In this document: positions 11,817 through 32,491 of the stretch, piece after piece | How positions within the stretch are numbered: position 1 is the first letter of the stretch | How the letters are laid out: each line of letters begins with the position of its first letter | Virus record (IMG/VR): IMGVR_UViG_3300037423_000659 | Span: 1 to 33,045 of that record | Length of the DNA: 33,045 bases | Reading direction: 5' to 3' (one strand) | Source: a virus | Lineage: Duplodnaviria; Caudoviricetes | Notes under the pieces: generated by a model | What the model was told of the DNA's origin: nothing | Database searches by the model: none | What the model saw: only the letters and a program-made list of their open reading frames with translations | Position numbers and translations under genes: made by a program

Positions 11817-12983
11817 TCAGGTTCTGTGGGCTGGGTGGATGTAGTCTGATTGAGGATCACCGATCCGCCATGCCTGCGCGGCAATGGCCGTATTAATTGG
11901 CAAGTTGTCGATGTCGGAGACGTAGGGGATACCTTCGACACAAATGCCGTTTCGAGGGCATTTCATTTTCAAGAAGCGGCCTGGCTGAGAAAGACCTGGC
12001 AAGGTGAGTTCGATCAGCTCGCCGACATCTTCGCTCTCGTGCTTGTCGATCGTCTTGGCCTTGAGGACGGACAGCATGCGCGGCCAGCCGATTATCGCCG
12101 CGCCCACGGCGCGTTGCTCGACGTTGTCGGCCTTCAAGATGATTGCTGGATCGATTGTGGTCTTCTGTTCGATCCATTCAGACGGCACGCGAGTTCCGTG
12201 CCAAGCATGGATAGAAAATCCATCCTCGTATCGGATAGCGGGGCCTGTTTCGCAGTGGATGCGACCGTCATCGTCCAGATGACATTCGGCATGCCGCTCG
12301 CTAACGAAGCAAACGCCTTCGTATGGCAAGGCCCACCCGGAAGACTGGCAAAGCTCCCACAGGCCGCGAAGCTTTTCAGTCTGCTCTTTCAAGTCGCATT
12401 CGCGATGAAAGAACATGTAGAATGCCAGCCATGAGGCGTCATGTTGACCATAGACGCTGTCCCCGACGCTGGCCCCGACGCTGGCCCAGACGCTGGCCCC
12501 GACGCTGGCCCAGACGCTGGCCCCGACGCTGGCCCCGACGCTGGCCCTGACGCTGGCCCCGACGCTGGCCCTGACGCTGGCCCCGACGCTGGCCCCGACG
12601 CTGGCCCTGACGCTGGCCCTGACGCTGTCCCCGACGCTGGCCCCGACGCTGGCCCCGACGCTGGCCCTGACGCTGTCCCCGACGCTGGCCCAGACGCTGG
12701 CCCAGACGCTGGCCCTGACGCTGGCCCTGACGCTGTCCCCGACGCTGGCCCTGACATCACTCTTCAAGACCCCAAGAGCGAGAGCGTTTGCGAGCGGGCT
12801 TTTCGTCCAGATAATGCGAGGCTCTTTCAGCCCTGCGGACGAATACATGAGCCTGATGGCGGCTTCGGCCCGTGGCTTGTCTGCCGGGTCTGTGGACAGG
12901 CCGTAGCCTTTCCACTCGGCCACATATGCCGGAAACTTGTCGATTTGCTCTCGCGTCAGTTTTTCAATTTTTGCCATTCCCAT
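11817..12983 (-). CDS. DUF6745-like protein with internal tetrapeptide repeats
   Basis: 'W...GLST.PAD..RAE.AI..MY...GL..P.IIW..SP' N-terminus; 'GRIHCETGPAIRYEDGF..HAWHG.RVP', 'NVEQR', 'A..AQAW' C-terminus. Confidence 0.82.
   Translation of the reverse strand: MGMAKIEKLTREQIDKFPAYVAEWKGYGLSTDPADKPRAEAAIRLMYSSAGLKEPRIIWTKSPLANALALGVLKSDVRASVGDSVRASVRASVWASVWASVGDSVRASVGASVGASVGDSVRASVRASVGASVGASVRASVGASVRASVGASVGASVWASVGASVWASVGASVGDSVYGQHDASWLAFYMFFHRECDLKEQTEKLRGLWELCQSSGWALPYEGVCFVSERHAECHLDDDGRIHCETGPAIRYEDGFSIHAWHGTRVPSEWIEQKTTIDPAIILKADNVEQRAVGAAIIGWPRMLSVLKAKTIDKHESEDVGELIELTLPGLSQPGRFLKMKCPRNGICVEGIPYVSDIDNLPINTAIAAQAWRIGDPQSDYIHPAHRT
12456..12755 (-). repeat. 25 x 12-bp in-frame tandem repeat GTC-(G/A/T)GG-G(C/A)C-AGC encoding V(G/R/W)(A/D)S
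   Basis: Counted directly: 9 VGAS, 8 VRAS, 4 VWAS, 4 VGDS. Confidence 0.97.
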
Positions 12984-13348: not shown

Positions 13349-13378
13349 AATCTACAATCATTCTTGTGAGACTGTCAA
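13349..13378 (-). promoter_or_regulatory. PL-like early-left promoter
   Basis: TTGACA (13378-13373), 18-bp spacer, TAGATT (13354-13349); overlapped by operators. Confidence 0.75.
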
Positions 13379-13391
13379 CAAGGAAAATTGT
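13354..13391. promoter_or_regulatory. OL operators: ACAA-TCATTC-TTGT (13354-13367) and ACAA-GGAAAA-TTGT (13378-13391)
   Basis: Two perfect ACAA-N6-TTGT palindromes 24 bp apart; this is the 434/16-3-type operator consensus. Confidence 0.85.
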
Positions 13392-13454
13392 AAAAACGGG
13401 CGTGATGCGGCCCAATTGGGAAAATAATTGTAGACAATGATTGTAGATTAGGGG

Positions 13455-13491
13455 AAAAGAAAAGCGCCGGCGGGATGATCCGACCGGCGCT
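13455..13491 (-). terminator. intrinsic terminator (minus strand)
   Basis: AGCGCCGG/CCGGCGCT stem (13463-13491) followed on the minus strand by TTTTCTTTT. Confidence 0.8.
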
Positions 13492-13499
13492 GTGGCATA

Positions 13500-14000
13500 A
13501 CCAATTGAGAACCGATGCATACCAAACTTGGTATACAAAAGCAACGGGTTGAATGTGCTGCAGGCGAAGAAAAACGCAAAATCTTGGGCCTGCTCGGATG
13601 TTCCCGCCAAGATGATGTGTTCAGAAGCGCAAGCGCAGCGGTCTTACTCGGGTCTTCACCCGCGCCGCCGATCAATCCGGCCTATGAAATCCCAAGCGGT
13701 GACCGGCTCCCAGGCTGAACGGATAGGCATGACGGGATGATGATCCGTCCGAATGGTTTGAACGCGACTTGAGGAACAGACACGGCAACCGAAGCACCAC
13801 AGTATTCTGACGCGTTCCGAAGGGCGTGACTGCCCGAATGGATGTCAGGTGAAGCGCGGGCAGGGTACCGCGAAAACAATGCTAGCCGTGGATATCATGT
13901 CTTGAAAGCGTTCCGGGGTCCAACATACGGGTGCCCTGGCTGGATGGTGAGCCGCCCTTTCGTGGTGGTGAAGGACCATCTTGATTGCTAGAACTATGCC
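13500..14000 (+). ncRNA. candidate large structured non-coding RNA or origin region
   Basis: No credible ORF; at least 7 stems, several with G-U pairs that work only on the + strand (see findings). Confidence 0.4.
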
Positions 14001-14006
14001 TACAGC

Positions 14007-14702
14007 CTAGAATGTCCGGCTAACGACCAGCAAACCCTTGGCAATGATTTCCCATTGCTCGTCCTCGCTGCCATCGAATCTAATCGGGTCTTTAAACCGA
14101 TCGTCGGTAGATTCCGGCCAGAATTCACGAGTTCCATCTTTCTGAAAACGCAGGCGTTTAATCGATCGTTCCCGTAAGTGCCCCCTCGTTCGCTCGATGA
14201 TAACATAGTCGCCAGATCGGGCGTCATTGAGCGGATCGACATAAGGCGTGGCAATCCAATATTGGCCAGGCAGTGCCATCCGGTTCATTGATTCGCCCTG
14301 TACGAGATAGGCCCACTGAGGCAACGGCAAATCGGGGAAAATGGAGCCAAGATATTGCGGCTCTGGATTGTCTTCGATTTCGCGGAAAGCTCCCGCCTCG
14401 ACGCTCCCCTTGATTGGGATCAGGCCGGCGGCTGCTTCTTCCAAGCCGCCGGGGAGTGCTACGATGTCACCTGTTTCCGCCTCTTCTGCATGAGGGATCA
14501 GAGCTAAAAATGACGGGTCCAGTTCATAGGGATAGACATCAAGCGCCTTGGCTATTTCCAGGAGGAACTTTGTCCTTTTGATTTTCCCGCGCTCGATTTG
14601 ATCGATGAGCTGCTGCGAGACGCGGGCTCTCTTAGCCAGTTCGGGTTGTGACAACCCTTTGGCTTCCCTCAGTTCTCTGATCTTTTCGCCATTCACTGCC
14701 AT
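14007..14702 (-). CDS. cI: CI-like repressor (XRE HTH + S24 autopeptidase)
   Basis: 'GLSQPELAKRARVSQQLIDQIERGKIKRTKFLLEIAKAL' closely resembles the 434 repressor HTH; 'AG' cleavage site (EAGAF), 'V.GESM' catalytic Ser, 'IKRL' Lys. True start may be GTG 14696 by SD spacing. Confidence 0.93.
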   Translation of the reverse strand: MAVNGEKIRELREAKGLSQPELAKRARVSQQLIDQIERGKIKRTKFLLEIAKALDVYPYELDPSFLALIPHAEEAETGDIVALPGGLEEAAAGLIPIKGSVEAGAFREIEDNPEPQYLGSIFPDLPLPQWAYLVQGESMNRMALPGQYWIATPYVDPLNDARSGDYVIIERTRGHLRERSIKRLRFQKDGTREFWPESTDDRFKDPIRFDGSEDEQWEIIAKGLLVVSRTF

Positions 14703-14714
14703 ACCCCCTTAATA

Positions 14715-14776
14715 ACAAGACAGTTTGTGAGTCGCCTTACAAGATTGATAGTTGACAGAGACACTAGTGATCTTGT
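14715..14776. promoter_or_regulatory. OR operators: ACAA-GACAGT-TTGT (14715-28), ACAA-GATTGA-TAGT (14739-52), ACTA-GTGATC-TTGT (14763-76)
   Basis: Three 14-bp sites at an exact 24-bp period between the divergent cI and cro genes. Confidence 0.85.
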
Positions 14777-14781
14777 ACAAC
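14752..14781 (+). promoter_or_regulatory. PR-like early-right promoter
   Basis: TTGACA (14752-57), 18-bp spacer, TACAAC (14776-81). Confidence 0.7.
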
Positions 14782-14787
14782 GATTGT

Positions 14788-15045
14788 ATGAGCACTTTTC
14801 GTGACGACATTCAACACGCCATCGAACTGATGGGTAGCCAGAGCAAACTGGCCACGGAGTTGGGCTGCACCCAGCAGGCCATCTCATTCATGCTTTCCGA
14901 CCGATGCAAGAAGATCAGCGCCGAAATGGCGGTAAAGATCGATAGGGCAACGGGAGGGCAGGTTTCCAAGGAGAAGCTCAGGCCGGATGTGTTCGGCCTC
15001 CCAGCACCTGAGGGTGCCTCTGAGAACGTCGGAGCCGCGGCATGA
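14788..15045 (+). CDS. cro: Cro/YdaS-like antirepressor
   Basis: 'AIELMGSQSKLATELGCTQQAIS...SAEMAVKIDRATGGQVSKEKLRPDVF' YdaS/Cro pattern; divergent from cI. Confidence 0.9.
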   Translation: MSTFRDDIQHAIELMGSQSKLATELGCTQQAISFMLSDRCKKISAEMAVKIDRATGGQVSKEKLRPDVFGLPAPEGASENVGAAA

Positions 15046-15578
15046 GCAAGCCATTTCGCCGCAAGACGCCAAATGGCTTCTATGAACCTGCTCTGACATC
15101 GTCGCGCTTCCACATCTACACCGATGGTGCATGCGAGCCGAACCCAGGCGCCGGCGGATGGGCCTTCGTCGTCATCGAAAGCGGCATTGAGATCAACAAC
15201 CGCAACGGCGGCGATATCCAAGCGACGAACAATATCATGGAACTCATCGCGATCCTGCGGGCGCTGGAATACGCCAAGGCGTCGGCGCTGCCCGTGGCCG
15301 ACACGGTAATCTATTCCGATAGCCAGTATTGCGTTCGAGGCTGCACAGAATGGCGGCACGGATGGCAGAGGAAAGGCTGGACGCGCGGCAAGGAAGCGCT
15401 CGCTAATGCTGGACTGTGGAAGGCGATCGCCGCCGCCCATGACGCCTTCCCGTGCAAGATAATTTGGGTTCGCGGCCACAGCGGCGTTCCCGGCAACGAA
15501 CGCGCTGACAGGCTGGCAGATAAGGGCAGGGCCTATGCGATTGAGCATCGCGTCACCGACGTAGGTGTTGCAGCATGA
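15042..15578 (+). CDS. rnhA: ribonuclease HI
   Basis: 'IYTDGAC.PNPG.GGW', 'TNN.MEL.A', 'SDSQY', 'WVRGHSG..GNERADRLA'; all catalytic D/E/D/D residues and the His are present. Confidence 0.95.
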   Translation: MSKPFRRKTPNGFYEPALTSSRFHIYTDGACEPNPGAGGWAFVVIESGIEINNRNGGDIQATNNIMELIAILRALEYAKASALPVADTVIYSDSQYCVRGCTEWRHGWQRKGWTRGKEALANAGLWKAIAAAHDAFPCKIIWVRGHSGVPGNERADRLADKGRAYAIEHRVTDVGVAA

Positions 15579-15646
15579 CCCTCTCCCCCTATCCCATCTC
15601 CCGCCGTCTCCCGGCTCATAAGCGCTCCAATGAGGTGACGGGATGA
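15575..15646 (+). CDS. 23-aa bridging mini-ORF (MTLSPYPISRRLPAHKRSNEVTG)
   Basis: ATGA overlap with the rnh stop and with the next gene's start; absent from the ORF track. Confidence 0.4.
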   Translation: MTLSPYPISRRLPAHKRSNEVTG

Positions 15647-15975
15647 GCACAGACAATCGGTTCGAACTCAAAGCGCAGAAGCTTCCAGAGGCGGAATATC
15701 CGAAAGAAATCTGGTTTTCTGCGCTCAATGCCTATCGTGAAATTGGGCTCAGGCAGGGCGGAGCCACATCTGACCGCGTGAATGCAATTGTGGACGCTAT
15801 CTTGGCCGAACGTGGAGCCGAGCGTGAGCGCTGCGCCAAGATTGCCGATGCACAGGCGGTAGATTGGCTCCAAGGAGTCAAGAAGGCGAACTCCATCGAG
15901 GCGCTCAACTATGCCAACGGTCGGCAAGACGGTGCGCAGGTCATCGCCGCCGCCATCCGCAAGGGAGGCGAATAG
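15643..15975 (+). CDS. hypothetical phage protein
   Basis: 'AERERCAKIAD...IAAAIR' accessory motif; GAGGT SD. Confidence 0.75.
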   Translation: MSTDNRFELKAQKLPEAEYPKEIWFSALNAYREIGLRQGGATSDRVNAIVDAILAERGAERERCAKIADAQAVDWLQGVKKANSIEALNYANGRQDGAQVIAAAIRKGGE

Positions 15976-16218
15976 ATGGCGCGCCAATACGTAATCACCG
16001 AAGCCGAATATCAGTCTCTCTTGGACAAGCTGGAGCTTCACAAGCTTCGCGAGGAAAACGTCGCTGATCCTTACCGTCACCTTGATGATGAATGGCGCAA
16101 TCTCTCCGACAAGGAAAAGGCCAACATTAAGCCGGCGATCGATAGCATTGCTCGCGGGTTCCATTTCGTCGTCGTCCGGTGGGCGCAGGAAATGGGTTTT
16201 GATGGACGGAGGAAGTGA
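15976..16218 (+). CDS. hypothetical phage protein
   Basis: GGAGG SD, 80 aa. Confidence 0.7.
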   Translation: MARQYVITEAEYQSLLDKLELHKLREENVADPYRHLDDEWRNLSDKEKANIKPAIDSIARGFHFVVVRWAQEMGFDGRRK

Positions 16219-16224
16219 CGAGCC

Positions 16225-16500
16225 ATGTGGAACCTTGATCTCAGCTCCATCCCCCGCGATACGTTCATCTGGGCAGCCACCCACAAGGGCGAAGTTGTCC
16301 GCACTCGGTTCATCGCCAAGTCCAAGACAGTCAAGGAACCGTTCTGGCAGGGCGTCGGGCCGGAGACATGCATTCTCGCGTGGCAGCCATTCATCCGGCC
16401 AGCTCATCCATTTGCAGACGCTGGCGAGGCCAGAGCCGAAATAGGCGCCATCCTGGCCGCAGAGCACCTGCCGATCATCAACGACGTTGTGGGAATGTAA
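16225..16500 (+). CDS. hypothetical phage protein
   Basis: 91-aa ORF in the operon. Confidence 0.65.
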   Translation: MWNLDLSSIPRDTFIWAATHKGEVVRTRFIAKSKTVKEPFWQGVGPETCILAWQPFIRPAHPFADAGEARAEIGAILAAEHLPIINDVVGM

Positions 16501-16503
16501 GTC

Positions 16504-16896
16504 ATGGTCACCAAGCAAGACTGGATTGAAGCGAAGGCAGCAATCGAGGCGATCGAGAAGGAACGTTCGGATCTCGTTGCTCACACCAACGAACGGCTGA
16601 GCGCTGCGGAAGAGCGATTTGACGAGATCGAGGAGCAATTGTCCGACAGCGGAGAACTGATCGACCAGTGTGAGGGGTGCAGCCAGCCGATTTTCGAAGG
16701 CGAGAAGCACTTCCGCTGCAACGACGGTATCTACCTCTGCGAGGAATGCGCTCCAACCTATGAAAACCTGCTCAACGACCGCGACTTCTGGGTGAACGAG
16801 GAAGGCGATCAGATGAGCCTGGAACGGGCTCAGGCAATCTACGACGCCCACATCGCTGCCGGCGGCAAGCCGACTGACAGCATGGCAGAGGTGTGA
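16504..16896 (+). CDS. zinc-finger-containing phage protein
   Basis: CEGC...CEEC pairs following a coiled-coil segment. Confidence 0.72.
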   Translation: MVTKQDWIEAKAAIEAIEKERSDLVAHTNERLSAAEERFDEIEEQLSDSGELIDQCEGCSQPIFEGEKHFRCNDGIYLCEECAPTYENLLNDRDFWVNEEGDQMSLERAQAIYDAHIAAGGKPTDSMAEV

Positions 16897-16899
16897 GCC

Positions 16900-17220
16900 A
16901 TGGGCTGGGAACGCTATGGCAAGGTTGGCGACAAGATCGTGTGCATCCGCGACGAAAGCGAAATGATGCATCCTGCCGCGGGCGATGTCATGCCGAAAAA
17001 GGATCAAATCTATACGATCCGAGGTTTCGAGCGCGAAGACGACGATGTGTTCTTCTACCTCGAAGAAATCCGCAATCAGCCTGGTCTCTATTGGGACGGT
17101 TACGGCGAAACCTGCTTCCACAGCGAAGGCTTCCGACCGATCCAGGATCGCAAGACCGACATTTCCAGTTTGACCAAGCTCCTCAACACGGCTCCGGCCG
17201 ACGAACTGGAGGATGCTTGA
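16900..17220 (+). CDS. hypothetical phage protein
   Basis: 'VGDKIVCI....YTIR......L.EI.N......F...FRP...KTDIS' recurrent phage family pattern. Confidence 0.72.
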   Translation: MGWERYGKVGDKIVCIRDESEMMHPAAGDVMPKKDQIYTIRGFEREDDDVFFYLEEIRNQPGLYWDGYGETCFHSEGFRPIQDRKTDISSLTKLLNTAPADELEDA

Positions 17221-17532
17221 ATGTCCGATCTCAGCGCCCGGGCTGGACGATTGATCGCCGACGAACCCGATCTCTGCATGGAGATCGCCAAGCTGATCGA
17301 TGAGCGCACCTCGGCCAACATGGGCCTCACCAGCCGCCAGCGCGAGCTTATGGATTTCATCCGCATGCGGCAGCGCTCCGTAGGCATCGCCCCCACCCAA
17401 GAGGAGATGGCAAACCATATGCGATTGTCCAGCAGGGGCGCCGTAAACCGGCTTGTCGACGCGCTGGAAGAGCGCGGGGCAATCCGCCGCATGCCTGGAA
17501 AGGCAAGAGCAATTCAGGTTGTAGGGGGCTGA
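17221..17532 (+). CDS. LexA-type DNA-binding winged HTH without a peptidase domain
   Basis: 'LT.RQRELMDFI......G.APT.EEMA....LSSRGAVNRLV.ALEERG.IRR.PGKARAI.V' matches the alphaproteobacterial LexA N-domain. Confidence 0.85.
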   Translation: MSDLSARAGRLIADEPDLCMEIAKLIDERTSANMGLTSRQRELMDFIRMRQRSVGIAPTQEEMANHMRLSSRGAVNRLVDALEERGAIRRMPGKARAIQVVGG

Positions 17533-17533
17533 T

Positions 17534-17692
17534 ATGGGAAATTCTATCGGGACGCTGATCGTTATCTGGGGCATCGCTATTTTCTTCGGCCTTTGCGTCT
17601 TGGCCGTCTGGCGCTCTTTCAGAAGCCGCCTAACGGACGATGACAGCACCTATGAGTGCCCCGAGGGCGATCTTCGCAATTTTCGAAAGTGA
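17534..17692 (+). CDS. 52-aa single-pass membrane protein
   Basis: MGNSIGTLIVIWGIAIFFGLCVLAVWRSFR...RK; GGGGG SD; absent from the ORF track. Confidence 0.6.
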   Translation: MGNSIGTLIVIWGIAIFFGLCVLAVWRSFRSRLTDDDSTYECPEGDLRNFRK

Positions 17693-17886
17693 ATTTGGCG
17701 TGGCGACCTGATCTTGGCGGGTCTGTCGCCTTTGCCAGTGGATTGAAAACGTGGGGAAGGGCGGGTTCCTTTCTCAACCATCAGCCCGAGTTCGATAAGG
17801 GCAAATTATCGAAAGTCGGGAACATGATTTGGAAAACCTATGACCGTTTTTTGGCAAATGACAACTCAAGTCGAAAGGAGAAAGCA

Positions 17887-18249
17887 ATGTCTGCAGTAAC
17901 CGCGATCAGCCCCGACTTGGCGGCGGCATACGCGCGGAAGATGATCGAGCGTGAGACAAGGGGCAACGGTGACCAGATGAACGCCATGGAGCGCGTCGGC
18001 CACCGGTGCGGCCTTTCTGCTCGTGCGCTTCGGCGACTTCTCAGCGGAGAAACAAAAGACCCTGGCGTCTCGGTCTTCGCGAGAATTCGGACCGCCTATC
18101 TCAGATATTGCGAAACGCAGATAGCCGAATTGGCACTGGAAATCGCGGCAGACAAAGCGAGGTACGGCGATGAACCTTTTGAGGATCTTGGTGCTGAGGT
18201 TCAAGCATTGGCTGAAAAGATCAAAGCAGCGAAGGAAAGGATCATCTGA
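17887..18249 (+). CDS. HTH regulator (CII-like by position)
   Basis: AAGGAG SD before ATG 17887; 'ERVGHRCGLSARALRRLLSGE' HTH-like segment followed by a helical tail. Confidence 0.6.
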   Translation: MSAVTAISPDLAAAYARKMIERETRGNGDQMNAMERVGHRCGLSARALRRLLSGETKDPGVSVFARIRTAYLRYCETQIAELALEIAADKARYGDEPFEDLGAEVQALAEKIKAAKERII

Positions 18250-18821
18250 TGACAGTGGCAGGGCATAACACGCAGACGGAACGCGAGATGTGGGAAGAAC
18301 AGCAGTTCCACAACGGCGTCGGCCAGATCAAGCGTTTGAACTCCGATATGGCTGGAACGAAGGGCGAGATCGGCGGAATTTATAAACGGCTCAAGGATGT
18401 CGGCTTCACCAAGGCAGATGTGAAATGGGCTTTCGAACTGCAGGACAAGGACGCCTCCGAAGTCATCGCGACAATGGAACGGCGCCTGCGGATTGCGAGA
18501 TGGCTCGGGCATCGCGTGGCTCGTCAGTTCGACATGTTCGACAAGGACCGTACGCCGGCTGAGGATGCGGCCTACGAGGACGGTCTTGCCGCTGGAAAGC
18601 AGCGAAAGCCGAACTCCAACCCATACGATACTGGCAGTCCTCAGGGGCAACGCTGGCAAGCGGGGTTCAACGACGGAACCGAGTTCATCAACAAGGAACT
18701 CAATGCAGCAGTGAACGGCGACGACGGCGCTATCCCCGAGATGGCCGACGATGAAGACGGCAAACAGGCCGACGGCGATGCCGAATGGAATGCCGCGGCC
18801 CCAAAGCAGGCCGCCGAATAG
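18249..18821 (+). CDS. GapR-like N-domain plus RMF-like motif protein
   Basis: 'GHN...IKRL.....GEI..IY...KDVGF' resembles GapR/DUF2312; 'AYEDG..AG......NPY......RW..GF' resembles RMF. Confidence 0.6.
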   Translation: MTVAGHNTQTEREMWEEQQFHNGVGQIKRLNSDMAGTKGEIGGIYKRLKDVGFTKADVKWAFELQDKDASEVIATMERRLRIARWLGHRVARQFDMFDKDRTPAEDAAYEDGLAAGKQRKPNSNPYDTGSPQGQRWQAGFNDGTEFINKELNAAVNGDDGAIPEMADDEDGKQADGDAEWNAAAPKQAAE

Positions 18822-18905
18822 TAGTGCGAGGCCCGCTCATCTCCTCCCTTTGCGGCGGGCCAAATTACGGAGCGCGAATGCTCCGGTCTTTCCCAAGGAA
18901 ATCTG

Positions 18906-19223
18906 ATGCAACCCATCATATGCCATTGCTGCGGACAGGTGATCGGCGAAGTGCCTGAGCTTTCCAGGTTGCGGGGTGAGCTTTCCCATCGCGAGTTCTC
19001 CGTCATGGAGAAGATATTCAAGGCAGGAACTGAAGGCATCACGAGCAAGGCGCTTTCGCAGGCAGTGTTCGGCGATCGGCTTGGCGATCATCCCCGCAAG
19101 CTAGATGAAACCCGCGTGCTGGTTTCGCGCATCAGGCCGAAAATTGAGCGCTTCGGTTTCTTCATCCCAAAGTCAAACCGCTGGAGCCGGTATCGCGTGC
19201 AGCCGCTGGAGGCAACGCTATGA
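18906..19223 (+). CDS. OmpR/PhoB-type winged HTH protein
   Basis: 'CHCCG' followed by 'LSHREF.VM..I...IT...L...VFG...RVLVSRIRPKI..FG..I....Y'. Confidence 0.7.
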   Translation: MQPIICHCCGQVIGEVPELSRLRGELSHREFSVMEKIFKAGTEGITSKALSQAVFGDRLGDHPRKLDETRVLVSRIRPKIERFGFFIPKSNRWSRYRVQPLEATL

Positions 19224-19819
19224 AAATCATGGCTTTCGACACGTCAAAATCCAGCACCGGGTGGGCATTTTTGGAAATCATGTTTCGCAACGGTGCACTC
19301 GCAGACTTGAGAGGAGTTTCCGCCATGCGCTGCGGCTCGTTCAAGAGCGTCGGGGATACGTTTTTTGATACTATCTGGGACTTCCACCCGAAGTTTTTGA
19401 AGTTGATCAAAGAGTTTCGCCCCGACTACGTCATCGTCGAAGAGGGCCTTGCTGTCATCCCTCAGTTCGAGGTGACAAAAAAGCTTCTGACTGGCGAAGA
19501 GGTCAAGAGGCTGGTCGTCAATGCCAATTCGTCATTGGTGCTCCAACGTATCCTTGGGGACGTGCAGGCGATATTGCGTGGCATGAGCATCCCCCACGAG
19601 ACGGTGGCGGTTGAAACGTGGAGGAAGACCTTCCTCGGATACGGCCGCAAGAAAGGCATGACACAGGATGCCTATAAAAAGGCCGCTCGCGCTCAATGCG
19701 AGGCCCTTGGCATCAACGTTTCGAATAACGACCAGGCAGAAGCCGCGGGCATTCTCTACTGGGGAGCGGTTGACAGCCAGCACATCAAGGAAATCGTCAA
19801 CAAACAGGTGGCCGCATGA
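19220..19819 (+). CDS. ruvC: RuvC-like Holliday junction resolvase
   Basis: 'IMAFD.S..STGWA', 'PDYVIVEE', 'WRK', 'NDQAEAAGI' RuvC acidic motifs. Confidence 0.85.
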   Translation: MKIMAFDTSKSSTGWAFLEIMFRNGALADLRGVSAMRCGSFKSVGDTFFDTIWDFHPKFLKLIKEFRPDYVIVEEGLAVIPQFEVTKKLLTGEEVKRLVVNANSSLVLQRILGDVQAILRGMSIPHETVAVETWRKTFLGYGRKKGMTQDAYKKAARAQCEALGINVSNNDQAEAAGILYWGAVDSQHIKEIVNKQVAA

Positions 19820-20001
19820 CGACCAAATCCCATCACTGTCCCAAATGCTCGAAGGCGCTCTCCATCGCTGAAATCATCACCGAGTTCTGCGAGGAATGCC
19901 TCGTTGACGTCAAGCCGACACTCAATCCGCCGGCCCACGACCGCCCCCAGGTAGACCGCGCCGCTCCCCGTGATGGCGAACAGACGGCGGAGGCGGCATA
20001 G
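19816..20001 (+). CDS. small zinc-ribbon protein
   Basis: CPKC...CEEC, ATGA-coupled. Confidence 0.6.
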   Translation: MTTKSHHCPKCSKALSIAEIITEFCEECLVDVKPTLNPPAHDRPQVDRAAPRDGEQTAEAA

Positions 20002-20002
20002 G

Positions 20003-20683
20003 ATGGCAGCAGCATCAGCACGCGGGCTGTTTCGCGCCACAGGCAAGAAATCAAAGCCGGTTCACGTCTACGATCTGGAAGGCAATATTATCAAAGCCGA
20101 CGCCCTCGAGCGGGAGGCAGACGAATTCTATCCAACCCCAGTCGAGCCGCCACGCGCCTTCATTCATGCCGAGATAGAGCGGCTTCGCGACTTCGATAGG
20201 ATTTGGGGGCCTGCCTGTGGAACAGGCGTCATCGGCAAGGAATTGCGCGCGGTAGGGCTGGATACATTTGACAGCGATTTGGTCGACCGTGGCTGCGGCG
20301 CCGAAATCAGGGACTTCTACGACTATCGTGAAGCCCCGGCCAAGGCGATTGTGGAGAACCCGCCGTTCGCGGAATGCGGCTGGGGAAACGGCAAGGCCCG
20401 CTGGCTGAAGCACGCGCTGCAGACGCTCGATATCGAATACATGGCGCTTCTCATGAATTGGGGTTGGCCAGGAGCCGGCGGACTCGCGCCGTTTTACGCG
20501 CAGTTCCCGCCAGCGCGAGTCTACCTAATGCGATGGAAGATCGACTTCACCGGCCAGGGAGCACCCCCGATGCTCAACGGATGGTTCGTCTGGGATCGGA
20601 AATGGCATGGCGAGACCGTTCTCCGCATGCTCGATAGGAAGGACGCGAGGCAGGGCGAGTTGTTCGCGGGAGCGGCGGCATGA
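20003..20683 (+). CDS. DNA N6-adenine methyltransferase (small, NPPF type)
   Basis: 'FYPTP', motif I 'WGPACGTG', motif IV 'NPPF', 'WFVWD'; start ATG 20003 after GGAGG. Confidence 0.8.
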   Translation: MAAASARGLFRATGKKSKPVHVYDLEGNIIKADALEREADEFYPTPVEPPRAFIHAEIERLRDFDRIWGPACGTGVIGKELRAVGLDTFDSDLVDRGCGAEIRDFYDYREAPAKAIVENPPFAECGWGNGKARWLKHALQTLDIEYMALLMNWGWPGAGGLAPFYAQFPPARVYLMRWKIDFTGQGAPPMLNGWFVWDRKWHGETVLRMLDRKDARQGELFAGAAA

Positions 20684-21402
20684 GCGACTATGATGCCCGC
20701 AAGGATAGCTTTGAGAGCTACAACGACGCTGTCGCGGCGCTCAGGGCCAAGCTGCTGCTCGAACGCTGCCCGGCGGCAAGCCGCGTCGAGGTGATCGGGC
20801 AATGCGAGCTTTATCTCGGCGACTGCCTGGACGTGATGCCGACGCTAGGGCGGGTGGATGCCGTAGTGACGGACCCGCCGTACGGGATGAATAAGGGCGA
20901 ATGGGATCAAGAAATCCCAAACTGGTTGCCTTTCGTTCACGGCATTCCGACCGTCTGTTTCTCAGGGGTTGTCGGGATGGCTGATTACCCAAAACCGGAT
21001 TGGATCGGAGCTTGGGTTCGTCCTGCGTCGACACAGCGCAATGGGCGACTGAAAGGGTTTAACAATTGGGAGCCGCTGCTCTTTTTCAACATCAACAGAC
21101 TCGACAATGACGTGCTCATTGAGCCGAACTTTCATGACCAAACTGGGCATCCCACCACTAAGCCAACGCGCCTTATGGAGCGCCTTCTCATAAAGATGCC
21201 TGAAGGCATCGTGCTTGATCCTTTCATGGGCAGCGGCACCACGGGCGTCGCATGCGCCAAGGCGGGGCGCGGCTTTATCGGCATAGAGAAAGATCCAGGC
21301 TATTTCGACATCGCCTGCGAGCGCATCCGCCAGGCCTATCGCCAGCCTGACATGTTCGTTGTCGCTCCTCAACCTGAACCAGTTCAGGAGTCGCTTCTAT
21401 GA
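20680..21402 (+). CDS. beta-class N6/N4 DNA methyltransferase
   Basis: 'GDCL', 'DPPY', 'HPT.KP', 'DPFMGSGTT', 'FIGIE'. Confidence 0.92.
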   Translation: MSDYDARKDSFESYNDAVAALRAKLLLERCPAASRVEVIGQCELYLGDCLDVMPTLGRVDAVVTDPPYGMNKGEWDQEIPNWLPFVHGIPTVCFSGVVGMADYPKPDWIGAWVRPASTQRNGRLKGFNNWEPLLFFNINRLDNDVLIEPNFHDQTGHPTTKPTRLMERLLIKMPEGIVLDPFMGSGTTGVACAKAGRGFIGIEKDPGYFDIACERIRQAYRQPDMFVVAPQPEPVQESLL

Positions 21403-22925
21403 GCCGCATCGAAGACCGCGCCGCAGCCATGGCAAAGACGCGCGACAATCCGTTTGAGCGGCAGTTGCCGGCGAACATCGAAGCGGAACAGGCGCTCTTG
21501 GGGGCGCTGCTGGTGAATAATGAGGCCTATTATGCAATGCTGCCCAGCGGGCTCGAGGCTGCCCATTTCGGAGAACCTATCCACCGGACTGTCTTCGAGG
21601 CCGTAAAGTCCTGCATCGCTGCTGGCAAGGTAGCCAATCCCTACACCATTCGATCGTTCATCTCACCTGATGTTCTAAACAGGCCGGTGGGCGAGACGAC
21701 CGTAGGAGGCTATACCGCAAGGCTTGTGTCCGAGGCAGCATCGATTATCCACGCCAAAGATTTCGCTGACGGCATCAAGTTTGCCTTCCACCGGCGAGAT
21801 GTCTTGCCAACGGCCGACATTATCGAGGGCGCTGCATACAATGCTCAGGACGAGCTCGCCTTTGTTGACCAGATCAGAGAAGCGCGGGACCGACTGACGA
21901 ACACCATCAATGCGATAGAGGGGCAGGGCGCCCAAGACGATGAGCAGATCATCGATAGTTATCTCCAGATGATCACGGGCGAGAACGAAGCCGCAGGTGC
22001 AGACGGAATTCCGCTGCCTTTCCCAGACTTCGAATACCTCATCAACGACAACATGCTTCGCCCTGGAAGGACATACGGAATTCTAGGGGCAAGCGCTGAA
22101 GGCAAAACATCTCTGACGCTACAGGTTGTCTATGCGGCGCTGATTGCTGGACATCCGGTTTGCATCTTGTCCTTTGATCAGGATCAGATGGAAATCTTGG
22201 CGCAGATCACGGCGCAGCAGGAAGGCATACCGTTCTCATCGCAAATCCAGAACTCGCGAAATCATCAGCGTCTTAGCCAGCACCAGATTGACCAGGCCTA
22301 TGGCTTCATTCGAAAGCTGAAACGGAGGCCGTTCGAGATTATCCAATGCCGGACTTCCGACACGGTGCAAAAGCTTGAAACCAAGATGGACGGGTTTCTC
22401 CGGCGGCGCACCAATGGAAAGATGCCACTCTTCGTTTTCGACCATATCCGGGCGATCAAGCCCGCGGCGCAGGCCGACGAAGGCACCAAAGCCCTGCAGA
22501 TTGGACAGGATATCCACGACGCAATGAAAGCCCGCAGAAGCGCCGGTTGGGTGCTCCAACAACGATCGACAACTGGCCTCAAGCGTGAGAACCCGCGGCC
22601 TGCCTCCGCCGACCTATTCGGAGGAGACTCGGCAAAGCAGCCGTTCGATGTAATTTTCTACGTCTTCCGGGCCAGTGAGCACCGCGACGAACAGGTGAGG
22701 ACGGCGAAGGAAGAAAAAGACGTGGCTGGTATCAAAGAACGGTTCAACCGTATCTACGGTAGGGATCGCAATGACGAATACATCCCGATTGAGAATTGTG
22801 TTGAGCTTGGGCTCATCAAGAACCGCTTCGGGCCGAAGAACCGCCGGGCACACCTAGCCTTCGATCCAGAATACACGCGGTTTTCATCTCGACGCCAGCA
22901 GGATCAATGGGAGTTGCTGCCATGA
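21399..22925 (+). CDS. dnaB: DnaB-like replicative helicase (divergent)
   Basis: N-terminal 'P.NIEAEQALLGALL', Walker A 'GASAEGKTS', 'VFDH', 'KNRFGP' arginine finger. Confidence 0.88.
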   Translation: MSRIEDRAAAMAKTRDNPFERQLPANIEAEQALLGALLVNNEAYYAMLPSGLEAAHFGEPIHRTVFEAVKSCIAAGKVANPYTIRSFISPDVLNRPVGETTVGGYTARLVSEAASIIHAKDFADGIKFAFHRRDVLPTADIIEGAAYNAQDELAFVDQIREARDRLTNTINAIEGQGAQDDEQIIDSYLQMITGENEAAGADGIPLPFPDFEYLINDNMLRPGRTYGILGASAEGKTSLTLQVVYAALIAGHPVCILSFDQDQMEILAQITAQQEGIPFSSQIQNSRNHQRLSQHQIDQAYGFIRKLKRRPFEIIQCRTSDTVQKLETKMDGFLRRRTNGKMPLFVFDHIRAIKPAAQADEGTKALQIGQDIHDAMKARRSAGWVLQQRSTTGLKRENPRPASADLFGGDSAKQPFDVIFYVFRASEHRDEQVRTAKEEKDVAGIKERFNRIYGRDRNDEYIPIENCVELGLIKNRFGPKNRRAHLAFDPEYTRFSSRRQQDQWELLP

Positions 22926-23257
22926 TCACCGCCTCAATCGCCCGCGCCATCAACACGCCGAAGGGATGGCAAGCAGAATATTTTTTGTCTGGCGAGAGCG
23001 ACCCGCACAAGCTCTGTGACGCGCTCGGACGGCCTCAGATATATCCAACAGCCCAAGACGCGCGTGTGGCCGCCCTTGAGGCTCTGGTGGCCGCCATGGA
23101 GCGCGCCGACGCCGCCTATATCGACCCGTTGCCGGACCAATTCTGGCTTGAGGTAAAGCCGAAGACACGGCTCGGGCTGATCGTGCAAGCGAAGAAGAAG
23201 TTCGCCCAGGTCGAGGCGGGCCGGGTTATTCCAGTCGAGCGGAGGGCGAGCGCGTGA
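22922..23257 (+). CDS. hypothetical phage protein
   Basis: Start MITASI at 22922 (ATGA overlap with dnaB). Confidence 0.65.
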   Translation: MITASIARAINTPKGWQAEYFLSGESDPHKLCDALGRPQIYPTAQDARVAALEALVAAMERADAAYIDPLPDQFWLEVKPKTRLGLIVQAKKKFAQVEAGRVIPVERRASA

Positions 23258-24030
23258 ACAACCCAGCCTATCAAATCGGCCCCATAGAGGCCAAGCTACG
23301 CGCAGAGGCAGCAGAGCGCCGCAGGAGGTTCAGGGAGGCCAAGCCGCCGGTACCGCGCCTGATGCTGGTCAAACCTGCCGAACCCGCTACAGAAGCCCCA
23401 CAGCGGCTGCCAGTGGCGTTCGACCATCATGTGCTGGCCTACAGGGCTCAAACATCCGGCATCGCCTACGTGCTCTATGAATGCCGAGAGCGCGGGCTGA
23501 CACTCGATGACCTGCGCCGTTCGAACCGCAGCCATGAAATGGTGATGTTGCGGGGTGAAATCGCCCACAACCTGTCAACCCGTTTCGGCTGGAGCTATCC
23601 GCAGATCGCGCGGCATCTCAATCGCGACCATTCCAGCATCATCGGATGTGAGGCGACGTACTGCTCGATCAACCATATAGCAACGCGGACAAAGCAGCCG
23701 CGCCGTGTCGTCACCCCCGAGCAGATGGAAGAGATCAAGCGCCGAATAATGGCCGGTGAAGGCCTATCGACGGTCGCTAGATCGCTTGGCCACTGCGTTT
23801 CCACCATCGTGCGCCGATCGATCGAGAGCGGTTGGTATGTCGTCAACCGCCAGCCGGGCAAGAAGAAGATGGCACTGCCGCTCGACAAGATCGAGCAGGA
23901 TTACAACGCCGGCATGGCGTTCAGGGCTATCGCTGCCAAATACCGCGTCAGCACTCGGACGATCAGCCGGGCTGTGGCTGACCATGGGTGGGCGCGGAAG
24001 GCGGAAGCTGATAGGGCGGCCGGGGAATGA
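23254..24030 (+). CDS. DnaA domain-IV-like HTH plus two further HTHs
   Basis: 'RS.E.V..R.EI...L......SYPQIARHLNRDHSSII' matches Bac_DnaA_C (SLP.IG..F..RDHTTV); two more HTH-like segments follow. Confidence 0.75.
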   Translation: MNNPAYQIGPIEAKLRAEAAERRRRFREAKPPVPRLMLVKPAEPATEAPQRLPVAFDHHVLAYRAQTSGIAYVLYECRERGLTLDDLRRSNRSHEMVMLRGEIAHNLSTRFGWSYPQIARHLNRDHSSIIGCEATYCSINHIATRTKQPRRVVTPEQMEEIKRRIMAGEGLSTVARSLGHCVSTIVRRSIESGWYVVNRQPGKKKMALPLDKIEQDYNAGMAFRAIAAKYRVSTRTISRAVADHGWARKAEADRAAGE

Positions 24031-24464
24031 TTGATCCGCGCGTTCAAGCCATATGCGAGGAATTCGGCATCAAGATCGTTGATGCTCGAACCTATCCTGG
24101 CATTCGCGAGACGCGGGCAATCGCCACAATGGAGCGCATTCTCCACGCGAAGGGCTATGAGCATTTCCGGTTGGTGATGATGACGCTCGGAGAGACAGAG
24201 AACAATCAAGGCCAGATAGACGAATTCCTTCTCTATGCCGTGAGCGACCTTGTGGAGGCTTATGGAGAACTCATCGAAGATGATGCCTCCAGATGGCTCT
24301 CATGCTTCGACAGGGCGCCCATAGGCGAGTTACAATACATCGTGCGCCACCAGCGCCGGCAGAGGCATAAGTTGTTCGGCATGATTGCAGAGCGCATATA
24401 TATCGCATTCGGACCGAAATCAGTGCAGCCAGACCTATTTGACGACAGGCGGAGAACAGCATGA
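24027..24464 (+). CDS. conserved hypothetical phage protein
   Basis: 145 aa, ATGA-coupled; ends in QPDLF. Confidence 0.75.
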   Translation: MIDPRVQAICEEFGIKIVDARTYPGIRETRAIATMERILHAKGYEHFRLVMMTLGETENNQGQIDEFLLYAVSDLVEAYGELIEDDASRWLSCFDRAPIGELQYIVRHQRRQRHKLFGMIAERIYIAFGPKSVQPDLFDDRRRTA

Positions 24465-25186
24465 AAAAGAGCGACCTAGCGGAACTCTTCACCAAGGCGG
24501 CAATCATCGATCGACGGTTGCCGATCATGGCCAAACCGGCGGCCCTGAGGGCACAGCAAATCCCTTATGTGCATGACGAAGCTGATCAGCGCGGATGGTT
24601 CCCCGTTGCAGGTAGGACCAAGAGCGAGCGCATCGCCAACCGGAAGAAGCTGAAGTGCAGCTTGCAAGAAGGGGACATAGGTCGATACGCGGAAGAGCGC
24701 ATGAAAATGCTGGATCCTGATCACCAGCGCATTCTTCCCGAAGATGTCACCGATTGGGAGACGGTCAACGAATATCTCTGGCTGGTGACCGATGAGGACA
24801 ACCGCAAGGCGCTCCTCAATTGGGCAAAGGCAAAAGCTGGTGGCCGCCCGTTCAAGCATTGGTGCAAGAAGAACGGAATTCATGAAGAAACCGGCCGGAG
24901 GCGCAAGGATCGAGCGCTTGGAGTGATTTCCGCGCATCTTATTCGCATCAAATCGCAGAATGACGCAATTGACGTTCTGGCCCTGTTGCCCACACCCCCC
25001 TTTTTCGAGCATATTTCGGATAACATCAGCCGGCATATCGAGGAGCCAAAACCAGGCACATGGATGGACGATCTGGCCTTCAGCCCGGTCGAGCATCCAG
25101 AGGTCAGGGACTTCTCTTGGGCTGAAAAACGGAACGAAGCCCGCCGTCAGCGCGAACGCAAGAGACGCGAGCAGCAGGCGGCATAA
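24461..25186 (+). CDS. putative late-gene regulator (Q position)
   Basis: Last gene before the tRNA/late region; helical C-terminal HTH-like 'FKHWCKKNGIHEETGRRRKDRAL'; function inferred from position only. Confidence 0.5.
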   Translation: MKKSDLAELFTKAAIIDRRLPIMAKPAALRAQQIPYVHDEADQRGWFPVAGRTKSERIANRKKLKCSLQEGDIGRYAEERMKMLDPDHQRILPEDVTDWETVNEYLWLVTDEDNRKALLNWAKAKAGGRPFKHWCKKNGIHEETGRRRKDRALGVISAHLIRIKSQNDAIDVLALLPTPPFFEHISDNISRHIEEPKPGTWMDDLAFSPVEHPEVRDFSWAEKRNEARRQRERKRREQQAA

Positions 25187-25192
25187 CAGTTA

Positions 25193-25268
25193 CGCAGGAT
25201 AGCCAAGTGGTTAAGGCCTCCGGCTCATAACCGGAAGATCGGCGGTTCAATTCCGCCTCCTGACACCA
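25193..25268 (+). tRNA. tRNA-Met (CAT), initiator-like
   Basis: Cloverleaf: D stem GCC/GGC, anticodon stem TCCGG/CCGGA with loop CTCATAA, T arm GGCGG-TTCAATT-CCGCC, encoded CCA; acceptor pairs 1:72 and 2:71 are mismatched. Confidence 0.88.
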
Positions 25269-25274
25269 TCACAG

Positions 25275-25300
25275 CCCGTCGCCACCGCGACGGGTTTTCT
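25275..25300 (+). terminator. intrinsic terminator after the tRNA
   Basis: CCCGTCGC-CACC-GCGACGGG followed by TTTTCT. Confidence 0.85.
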
Positions 25301-25322
25301 ATCTCACCAAGAGGCAATCACG

Positions 25323-25622
25323 ATGACACCTGGCACGGAAGGCATCCGCGTCAACGACAGCAGGTTTGTCGTTATCGAGAACTGCACCTTCAGGCGACGG
25401 AAACCATGGCGCATCCTCGCCGCTATTGAGGTTGTTCGTGTTTTCCTTGTGCGCTGGTTGCCATTGGTCATGCTGGTGTTCATCGTCACTTCTGTGGTGG
25501 ACATCTATTTCCAATACCAGCGCCTCCAGTCACAGAACCGCATGACAGCGGTAATGATCGAACTCGGCAAGCGCGTCGATATCATCAAGGCGCAGCCGGC
25601 TCAGATTGGATCGCCACGATGA
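25323..25622 (+). CDS. membrane protein
   Basis: GAGG SD; hydrophobic helix WLPLVMLVFIVTSVVDIYF. Confidence 0.65.
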   Translation: MTPGTEGIRVNDSRFVVIENCTFRRRKPWRILAAIEVVRVFLVRWLPLVMLVFIVTSVVDIYFQYQRLQSQNRMTAVMIELGKRVDIIKAQPAQIGSPR

Positions 25623-25777
25623 TCCCACACGACCCCGATCGCAACATCACCATGCCGCAAGGCACCGAACGAGACTTCCTACCCACAGACGAGAACGACA
25701 TCAATCACTTCTCCTATCTGAAGTGGTGGTTCGCCTTCGTCCTTGTCTTCGTCGCCGCGATTGTTTTCGTACGATGA
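25619..25777 (+). CDS. 52-aa C-terminally anchored membrane protein
   Basis: MIPHDPD...KWWFAFVLVFVAAIVFVR; ATGA overlaps at both ends; absent from the ORF track. Confidence 0.6.
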   Translation: MIPHDPDRNITMPQGTERDFLPTDENDINHFSYLKWWFAFVLVFVAAIVFVR

Positions 25778-25953
25778 CCGCCACCGCCTTCCCCCACACC
25801 CGCCGTGCCCGGCTGATCTACTACCTGCGCAGCGGCCTGTCATTCATGCTGCTGTCGTGGGCCATGACCGTTGCCCCGCAGCGTGAGCGGTTCTCCCTCG
25901 CTATGGCTGCAAGGGATCATGCCTACAGAACGATGGGGGTGGATGTGAAATGA
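25774..25953 (+). CDS. small hypothetical protein
   Basis: Start MTATAF at 25774, ATGA-coupled. Confidence 0.55.
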   Translation: MTATAFPHTRRARLIYYLRSGLSFMLLSWAMTVAPQRERFSLAMAARDHAYRTMGVDVK

Positions 25954-26207
25954 CATTCACCTTCGCGCTGTCTGACCTCGAAGAGAAACAGGCCAAGACA
26001 GTGAGCGATATTGGCCGATCGTTTCAGCAGCGGTTTACCGCCTTGGGATTCACGCCAGGAACTTTCGCCGATCGCATGGAAGTGGAGCCGAACAACGCCA
26101 TGCGCCTTTTATCTGGGTCAAGAGATTTCAGGATTTGCGAACTGATCTCCGTTGCCGATGTTCTTGGCATGGATGTTGAGATCAAGTTGACGGCTAAGGC
26201 CAAATGA
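25950..26207 (+). CDS. XRE-like HTH protein
   Basis: 'FADRMEVEPNNAMRLLSG..DF.I.ELI.VADVLGM.VEIKL'. Confidence 0.65.
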   Translation: MTFTFALSDLEEKQAKTVSDIGRSFQQRFTALGFTPGTFADRMEVEPNNAMRLLSGSRDFRICELISVADVLGMDVEIKLTAKAK

Positions 26208-26302
26208 CCCGCCCTCTCTGGCTCCCAATTACCTCCATCATCTTGGCGGCGCTGCTATGCTTGGTCCTAATTGCGATGCTGCCGGGAGGGACGGGAGGAT
26301 GA
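26204..26302 (+). CDS. 32-aa membrane peptide
   Basis: MTRPLWLPITSIILAALLCLVLIAMLPGGTGG; ATGA-coupled on both sides. Confidence 0.5.
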   Translation: MTRPLWLPITSIILAALLCLVLIAMLPGGTGG

Positions 26303-26610
26303 ATAGGCAAGAGCGTGAAGCTTTCAAGGCCGGGTTTGCCGATGGCATGCGGCTTGGCATCATCTTCCTTGCCAGCATCGCTGTTGATCTGGCGGCTGCT
26401 CTGCTTATCAATCTCCTCGTGTTTGGCCCGAACCTCGCAAACGCATCCATACACCCCGGCAACGAACCTATCGCCATTCTCCCACAGCCGCTCGCTGACG
26501 CGCAGCAGCCAAAGCCGCGATGCGTGAGGCTTCGCACTACGATCGTCACTGTACACCTTGCTAATGGTGCAGTGCTGATAGCGCCGATGACCATTGCGGT
26601 GCCGTGTTGA
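26299..26610 (+). CDS. membrane protein
   Basis: Start MNRQER; long hydrophobic segment GIIFLASIAVDLAAALLINLLVF. Confidence 0.55.
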   Translation: MNRQEREAFKAGFADGMRLGIIFLASIAVDLAAALLINLLVFGPNLANASIHPGNEPIAILPQPLADAQQPKPRCVRLRTTIVTVHLANGAVLIAPMTIAVPC

Positions 26611-26678
26611 ATAGATCTGGATGGTTCGGGCCTTTATTCGGAAACCCAAAACCACCAACCCAACAACAGGAAACAGAC

Positions 26679-26729
26679 ATGGCAAAGAAGACCAAACCGA
26701 AGCCGATGAAGCCGCGGCCGGGGTGCTGA
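26679..26729 (+). CDS. 16-aa basic peptide MAKKTKPKPMKPRPGC
   Basis: AGGA SD and an A/C-rich unstructured leader; stop lies 1 nt before the next ATG. Confidence 0.45.
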   Translation: MAKKTKPKPMKPRPGC

Positions 26730-26730
26730 C

Positions 26731-26958
26731 ATGAAGCGCCGATCGTTTCTATCGCTATTTGTGCTGTCTCCATTCTCCTCGGCAATTGAGTGCGAGGCTG
26801 CGGCAACCAGCATGAAGATCGAGAAGGCGAAAGAAAAGGTGGCGCGTCAAATAGGCAAGACTGAGGTCGCTGGAATCCGCTGGCCTAGTTCAGTACTTAT
26901 TGGAGCTAGAGGCGGTGGCGGCGGTGCATCTGGCGGGGGCTCTTCTTTGCATGGATGA
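26731..26958 (+). CDS. small protein with a twin-arginine-like N-terminus
   Basis: MKRRSFL...; Gly-rich tail. Confidence 0.5.
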   Translation: MKRRSFLSLFVLSPFSSAIECEAAATSMKIEKAKEKVARQIGKTEVAGIRWPSSVLIGARGGGGGASGGGSSLHG

Positions 26959-26973
26959 CAATGGTGTCGTAGG

Positions 26974-27180: not shown

Positions 27181-27181
27181 G

Positions 27182-27322: not shown

Positions 27323-27399
27323 AGAGACACCAAACTCGTTGTTTTCACTCCAGGCTCGGCTCACCCCCGGCCTTTTCCTCGTCCGGAAGGTAACGCAAG

Positions 27400-27678: not shown

Positions 27679-27807
27679 TACCCATCTGCGCCAACCTTTG
27701 CTCCTGCCCAACCCGCGGCGGAAATAGAAACGGGTATCGATCACCTGGGAAGACCAGCACCGCGGCGCAGCCGGTCATATGTAGCGGTGTAATCGTGCAA
27801 GCGGGGC

Positions 27808-32488: not shown

Positions 32489-32491
32489 GCG

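Follow-up and report, generated by a model that had tools for sequence, protein, structure and literature searches.

A probable RNA-based replication origin in a slot where related lambdoid phages hold an initiator gene

How does a temperate phage begin to copy its genome when its early genes include no recognizable initiator? This question is raised by IMG/VR record IMGVR_UViG_3300037423_000659, a virus fragment of 33,045 bases that was analyzed in its entirety (G000, hereafter the window); genes of this phage beyond the fragment are outside the counts given for it. Its genes mark it as a lambdoid temperate phage, and such relatives of its DnaB helicase as carry a name belong to Rhizobiales. 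A sequence-only reading of the window had listed RNase HI as second gene of the operon that starts with cro, RuvC, two methyltransferases, DnaB, a DnaA-C-like helix-turn-helix (HTH) protein and a Q-position gene, a list that PHROGs and Pfam confirm, and had suggested that replication starts either at a structured RNA in 13.5–14.0 kb or by recombination. We here propose that a conserved non-coding stretch at 13455–14000, the class-1 element, is probably an RNA-based, ColE1-like, RNA-primed lytic origin, and that it likely replaces an initiator-plus-iteron cassette which relatives hold in the same slot.

In phage lambda, initiator-binding repeats lie beside an A+T-rich region (PMC5043065). An origin of this type, with a winged HTH (wHTH) initiator, iterons and an AT-rich tract, is absent from the window. 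Among the 72 of 274 listed window open reading frames (ORFs) that were scanned against PHROGs and Pfam, none matches an O, Rep or other initiator family or a primase family, and a ‘primase/helicase’ profile matched the helicase part of the window DnaB only. No iteron array was found in the window, the longest near-tandem repeat in 13.0–25.3 kb being 15 bp long and inside a gene; neither strand of the window carries a DnaA box or either of two known regulator motifs, and its GC skew gives no clear origin signal. The earlier claim of a module that lacks initiator, primase and iterons is borne out within this 33-kb fragment. The missing primase had been counted as unusual but is ordinary, because lambdoid phages rely on host DnaG as primase. 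As an initiator, the DnaA-domain-IV-like HTH protein was rejected: its domain IV match is below the cut-off, no AAA+ domain was matched in it and the window has no DnaA boxes. It does not hold up as a stand-in either, given that its family is present in 65 of the 165 loci described below and also follows a full initiator in isolate Yong-M4-211. Two other candidates were dropped, namely a RepL-like gene of the closest relative, G001 (L002 17028-17561), as it is absent from the window, and a plus-strand gene to the left of cI in isolate Yong-M2-251, which was suspected until its sequence was read.

To place the window in its family we collected 165 loci with this DnaB, some of them redundant and 122 distinct. 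Their right operons share RuvC (147), phrog_26995 (133), phrog_22699 (127), the Q-position gene (125) and a small protein behind dnaB, here ORF116 (151), and no O/Rep cluster is among the 130 largest protein clusters listed for them. Judged by gene content, the absence of an initiator from the right operon is a family trait. Two isolates with a distant DnaB, DMCA and Yong-M4-211, have a DUF1376-type initiator behind dnaB and lack the ORF116-type small protein. The two methyltransferases do lie directly before dnaB, as had been noted, but this is not the initiator site that it was taken for: in this DnaB family that site adjoins cI.

This slot is bounded by PL and by the 3′ end of cI and lies behind a rightward promoter. 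In 36 loci it holds a plus-strand gene for a small HTH_36 protein of ~100–110 aa, the mini-initiator, and behind its stop codon come two direct repeats, two shorter repeats and an AT-rich tract. The best near-tandem repeat behind the stop is 12–24 bp long in 25 of 25 loci, compared with 8–11 bp inside the gene as a control. G001 (75 kb, DnaB 91% identical to that of the window) has the mini-initiator, repeat pair and AT-rich tract (L006:9805-10260) where the window has the class-1 element, and L046 has a full-length HTH_36 initiator in the same slot. The cassette resembles lambda O/ori and the HTH_36 phage initiators in its wHTH, paired repeats and AT-rich tract. It differs from lambda in that only a DNA-binding domain of ~100 aa is left of the protein, that the stop codon marks the beginning of the repeats and that the whole adjoins OL instead of lying inside the PR operon. 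From family and layout we infer that the mini-initiator cassette is an origin. A conserved short motif follows the AT-rich tract of these cassettes in the 36 loci, including G001. A second mini-wHTH family, seen in L036:2620-3350 and L116:2830-3520, has downstream of it both a G-rich hairpin and a repeat pair of 21 bp.

The class-1 element, which occupies this slot in the window, matches 26 of the DnaB-selected loci at E<1e-40 (nhmmer). Its nucleotide identity is 68–86% in aligned parts, and the DnaB proteins of the same loci are mostly 26–42% identical. Scanning viral contigs with a motif brought in 61 further element stretches, 58 of them strong matches, and in 46 of 61 copies a CI gene lies within 3.5 kb. 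Three element loci, L089, L100 and L117, belong to named isolates. Many one-base gaps separate the copies and they share no ORF, which argues that the element is non-coding. For the 5′ 320 nt of 49 copies, RNAalifold predicted 39 pairs, 27 of them with change on both sides. After six weak outer pairs were dropped, the 33 pairs kept for the covariation test have 96.9% of cells paired and 21 pairs changed on both sides; none of 500 shuffles reached the observed values, and slid controls were 37–48% paired. U-G pairs in helix 3 favor the plus strand as the RNA. Single-sequence folding of 13450–14000 is not better than shuffles (z −0.31 and −1.27), and the predicted structure is evident only by comparison of copies. 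Six subtypes can be told apart by their 3′ halves, and a similar short motif closes them; in the window it is 7 nt away from the stop codon of cI. A loose pattern for this motif, derived from the same copies, finds 49 of 62 copies compared with 17.6 in shuffles.

The element is one of several fillings of the slot. The 122 distinct loci comprise 25 with the mini-initiator, 24 with class 1, 25 with a second non-coding family (class 2) and eight with a third (class 3), and in addition one with a full HTH_36 initiator and two with a DUF1376 initiator behind dnaB. None of the 85 classed loci has two cassettes, and the three non-coding families together account for 57; five labels, four class-1 and one mini-initiator, were set by hand. 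Among the 37 loci without a class, 33 have the slot cut off or near the locus edge. Class 2 (~300–350 nt, 33 loci, for example L052:1290-1640 and L056:1520-1830) has a G-run before its end motif, is present in isolates Yong-M2-251 and Ssp-JY39, and occurs among plasmid records only in four Pseudochrobactrum replicons of 430–460 kb. Class 3 was found in 11 loci, for example L015:5560-6120 and L027:1250-1680. The class-2 and class-3 copies that were read have a promoter and 5′ start as in class 1. Ten unclassed loci inspected by eye included two with the second type of mini-wHTH and repeat pair, two with a fourth non-coding type (L092:1790-2150 and L082:120-480) and one with a long wHTH-like ORF. 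An observation on host labels belongs here: L003 (OM868082.1) was deposited with a cyanobacterial host but has the gene set and class-2 element of Rhizobiales prophages, and the label may be wrong.

Exclusivity extends to whole records, in which the mini-initiator profile matched none of 50 element-bearing and 18 of 50 other records (most of the 18 built the profile), and the class-1 model found no match in those 18. A Fisher test of exclusivity gives 4e-17, with kin not independent. On a quick DnaB tree of 85 rows the window and G001 are sisters, and each of the three main labels requires 19 changes against 21–22 when shuffled. With counts this close to the shuffled values, the cassettes have been exchanged often, and the exclusivity is not one of simple descent. 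What carries weight is that hardly any visible slot stands empty and that an initiator with iteron-like repeats is among the fillings. The suggestion of an RNA-type origin at 13.5–14.0 kb is supported, as the stretch is conserved, covaries and replaces the initiator-plus-iteron cassette of relatives.

The element-bearing phages themselves mostly lack another initiator. DnaB_C is found in 37 of the 50 element-bearing records, HTH_36 over the cut-off in none and DUF1376 in one, and across three profiles (mini-initiator, HTH_36 and DUF1376) 49 of the 50 have no replicon-encoded initiator. The same three profiles found nothing, for HTH_36 over its cut-off, in the 29 records that are at least 90% complete. 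BiPBO1, described as an inducible, plaque-forming phage (PMC4729917), has the class-1 element and the same right operon, with neither initiator nor RNase H among its annotated products. G023 (complete, with terminal repeats; 63 ORFs scanned) and G039 (36 of 91 ORFs scanned) have no DnaB, and in each the match of a 100–150-aa protein to an O-like profile is confined to the C-terminal part. G002, also without DnaB, likewise has a C-terminal initiator part, and none of the three has repeats in that gene. These remnants lie at L248:14200-14652, L254:7357-7656 and L266:9944-10486, and two of them precede a phrog_18745 gene. Some annotations of BiPBO1 invite a second look: gp77, annotated as DnaA (L236:40713-41402), looks by eye like a RuvC-type gene, an unannotated ORF (L236:39862-40614) holds a DnaA-C-like motif, gp62 (L236:34263-34397), possibly a false ORF, overlaps the element, and gp39 is a small wHTH protein.

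Transcription signals are predicted at the 5′ end of the element. The predicted promoter of the long RNA stands back to back with PL, whose two operator-like sites we take to be similar to those of phage 434. This promoter was not picked up by a generic promoter scan. By eye, most of the 61 distinct copies have TTGAC or TTGCG, 17 nt and (C/T)AAAAG at the equivalent place, amid operator-like repeats of their own. Helix 1, which forms a hairpin with a U-run and would act as a terminator for a minus-strand RNA, is 98.4% paired with eight of 10 pairs changed on both sides. Hairpin II varies in sequence and keeps its shape, and in helix 2 six of seven pairs are changed on both sides. Together with a candidate minus-strand promoter at 13581–13610, the terminator predicts an antisense RNA of ~115–120 nt over the 5′ end.

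On this layout, CI bound to the OL operators would keep the long-RNA promoter shut in the lysogen. Upon induction, host RNA polymerase would make a ~540-nt RNA whose fold keeps the 3′ end paired with the template near 13990–14000. RNase HI, normally the host enzyme and in the window boosted by the phage copy, would trim the hybrid for extension by DNA polymerase I (Pol I), as in ColE1. Phage DnaB, probably accompanied by ORF116, would then be placed on the displaced strand, priming of the lagging strand would fall to host DnaG, and the antisense RNA may damp the process or give it specificity. To a broader picture we assign an even chance of being right: that Rhizobiales lambdoid phages share one plug-in origin socket behind a CI-controlled promoter, in which a mini-initiator with iterons and at least four unrelated structured RNAs are interchangeable, the RNAs being lytic origins that stand in for the initiator's DNA-binding half and feed the phage or host helicase.

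Several known systems offer parallels. ColE1 transcribes an RNA II of ~550 nt whose promoter lies 550 bp upstream; the RNA stays hybridized, RNase H trims it and Pol I extends it, and an antisense RNA of ~110 nt that covers its 5′ end damps the process (PMC5043065). The element is alike in having no initiator protein; a promoter ~540–550 nt upstream of its end and a short antisense RNA over its 5′ end, with the terminator there, are predicted. It differs in being part of an integrating lambdoid phage, with predicted CI control, a phage DnaB and no Rop-like gene seen. In cluster A mycobacteriophages, a ~600-bp non-coding region replaces the RepA gene at one place, and such RNA origins keep the prophage as a plasmid and are not needed for lytic growth, according to Wetzel et al. 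2020 (PMC7157519). Here too, temperate phages swap a non-coding region with a Rep-type gene at one genomic place, although in another phylum, and we liken the two by layout. A parABS-bearing plasmid prophage without integrase is not what we found: integrases are present in G023, G039 and BiPBO1 (the integration genes of the window lie outside its record), and the origin would be lytic. The MRB plasmids of Vibrionaceae have an origin without Rep and two RNAs that are complementary in part, of which the smaller sets specificity (PMC3035462), but these are plasmids with an RNA I of ~68 nt, and the element has no match in the plasmid collection. ARRPOF and PAGEV, structured non-coding motifs of 223–349 nt tied to Rep-independent or predicted plasmid origins (PMC5737381), are a parallel at the motif level only and are shorter than the class-1 element. 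Rfam gave no match at gathering score for the window or seven loci that span classes 1–3 (best E 0.77).

RNA-started origins as such are already known but rare, and the MRB paper counts only ColE1 and the MRB plasmids as RNA-started replicons (PMC3035462). What appears to be new here is the swap of an RNA element with a mini-initiator in one slot. No prior description of the element or of such a socket was found in the open-licence literature, the supplements of PMC5737381, which may list related motifs, not being covered; nor is the element mentioned in passages about phiLM21-like prophages (PMC12429752). If the proposal holds, an RNA lytic origin that is interchangeable with a protein initiator shows how readily origins change type, several unannotated large phage RNAs gain a function, and several RNA-based replicon families are added at once. 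It would also explain the apparent absence of an initiator in many rhizobial prophages, provide near-identical genomes as natural protein-versus-RNA controls, and could yield inducible, compatible replicons for rhizobia.

A number of observations weigh against this proposal. Homology to ColE1 was rejected: nhmmer finds no match to RNA II, and global alignment z scores average 0.75 with a best of 3.2 among 62. Identities to RNA II are short: the window shares 11 nt with it, and in L184 16 of 17 nt agree at the 3′ end. The RNA I family RF00106 matches ColE1 itself and not the window. No class-1 match occurs in 72,556 plasmid records, and four metatranscriptome runs gave only contigs of 151–239 nt at depth 2–4, which is no evidence either way. 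The 21-nt search motif fixed ~20 columns of the element alignment. A G-run ahead of the 3′ end is clear in class 2 and in some class-1 subtypes but not in that of the window. With a single slot behind a single promoter, exclusivity is to some extent trivial, and of the ten unclassed loci seen by eye four show nothing recognizable and one is unclear. The function of the mini-initiator is itself read from family and layout. Five of the 50 element-bearing records have weak HTH_36 matches below the cut-off, and one, G028, combines the element with a DUF1376 initiator and a primase-helicase; its initiator gene has no iteron repeat.

G028 would sit well with a purely regulatory slot, in which the RNA is an antisense-controlled leader for passenger genes or an anti-immunity or cI-damping RNA, the small wHTH protein is a self-regulating repressor with operator repeats, and replication starts elsewhere. 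The position in the immunity region, head-on to cI, and the variable passenger genes often found downstream point the same way. However, no conserved gene follows the element, the wHTH protein is of HTH_36 type with a lambda-origin-like arrangement of repeats and AT-rich tract, the same slot takes a full-length initiator in L046, and 49 of the 50 element-bearing records have no other initiator family; we regard the regulatory explanation as unlikely. An origin whose RNA serves as a scaffold or opener, marking or melting the origin and recruiting a helicase loader, with DnaG priming both strands, would account for the several records in which only the DNA-binding half of the initiator is gone and a C-terminal part stays beside a loader-like gene. 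It would also suit a phage that retains its own DnaB, a fold more elaborate than priming requires and the lack of a strong G-run in the window subtype. The predicted arrangement, ColE1-like in promoter, length and antisense RNA, speaks for a primer instead, as do RNase H genes directly behind the element in L201 and L145, and a scaffold seems to us distinctly unlikely.

Two further explanations were weighed. Recombination-dependent replication, which the sequence-only reading had also suggested, would proceed through RecE/RecT D-loops and RuvC, with phage RNase H central; RecE-like, RecT-like and RuvC-like genes are all within the window by PHROGs. We found no support for it: RuvC is present in 147 of 165 loci whatever the cassette, RNase H in one of 50 element-bearing records, and on general grounds a single infecting genome has no partner for its first D-loop, all of which makes it highly improbable. 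We give equally little credence to an ordinary initiator in the part of the phage beyond the record or among ORFs too divergent to match. The record is a fragment of which 72 of 274 ORFs were scanned and two modeled, and library profiles do miss divergent initiators (L050 has no Pfam match). Yet the 29 near-complete element-bearing records lack all three initiator types, and the two conserved proteins ORF116 and phrog_22699 gave no initiator fold.

Phage RNase H, which had been seen as a defining part of the module, is an accessory. The window enzyme is intact (PF00075, E 4e-35), with D28, E67, D93, H146 and D156 all present, so the DEDD residues and the histidine are in place. Only one other locus of the DnaB-selected set has the gene, none is annotated in BiPBO1, and G001 lacks it and has another gene behind cro. 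That RNase H genes come right after the element in L201 and L145, and after cro in the window, is suggestive, the cases being too few to count. The G001 gene behind cro (L002:1178-2251) has a CxxxCxxC motif and looks radical-SAM-like by eye.

By position and distribution, ORF116 is a candidate helicase loader. Its model (pLDDT 74) has no significant fold match among viral models, and direct search found three homologues, unnamed Atlas clusters and no solved relative. The phrog_22699 protein has no significant match in the PDB by sequence or fold, a designed protein excepted; its likeness to a DnaD domain is weak and not significant (Z 4.6, root mean square deviation 2.8, 69 aligned). The phrog_26995 protein, part of the family core, may be GapR-like.

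Table 1 Predicted features of the window around the class-1 element and along the right operon
Feature	Position	Strand	Basis or remark
Class-1 conserved non-coding element, ~540 nt, predicted structured RNA, likely origin	13455..14000	+	nhmmer, motif scan, covariation
3′ end motif shared by subtypes, 7 nt from cI stop	13990..14000	+	Candidate RNA-to-DNA switch region
Predicted long-RNA promoter, −35 TAGACA, 17 nt, −10 GAAAAG, start near 13465	13431..13459	+	Back to back with PL
Hairpin and U-run, predicted terminator for minus-strand RNA, overlaps long-RNA 5′ end	13455..13490	−	Helix 1
Predicted antisense RNA, ~115–120 nt, spans hairpins I and II	13455..13575	−	Terminator plus candidate promoter
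Candidate antisense promoter, −35 TTGGCG, 18 nt, −10 CAAGAT, overlaps hairpin III	13581..13610	−	Suggested by alignment
PL promoter, TTGACA-18-TAGATT	13349..13391	−	Promoter scan
Two operator-like sites at PL, ACAA-N6-TTGT	13354-13367, 13378-13391		Read from sequence
CI repressor, HTH_3 and S24, head-on to class-1 element	14007..14702	−	PHROGs/Pfam
Cro	14788..15045 (alternative start 14752)	+	PHROGs/Pfam
RNase HI, intact, second gene after cro, accessory	15042..15578	+	PF00075
phrog_26995 protein, family core	18249..18821	+	PHROGs; 133/165 loci
RuvC-like resolvase	19220..19819	+	PHROGs; 147/165 loci
Two DNA methyltransferase genes (19970-20683 and 20680-21402), directly 5′ of dnaB	19970..21402	+	Variable passengers
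Divergent DnaB helicase of Rhizobiales prophages	21399..22925	+	Both Pfam domains; Walker A intact
ORF116, small protein behind dnaB	22907..23257	+	Family in 151/165 loci
DnaA-domain-IV-like protein with further HTHs	23254..24030	+	Bac_DnaA_C 27.6 bits, below 31.5 cut-off
phrog_22699 protein, helical	24027..24464	+	Family in 127/165 loci
Q-position gene	24461-25186		Family in 125/165 loci

Some minor features complete the window. A tRNA gene (25194-25265, plus strand) lies directly 3′ of the Q-position gene. On the minus strand, a DUF6745 protein (11817-12983) contains a 12-bp tandem repeat (12381-12815) that encodes a run of four-residue repeats. A second viral contig, L001, is identical to window positions 20145-32922.

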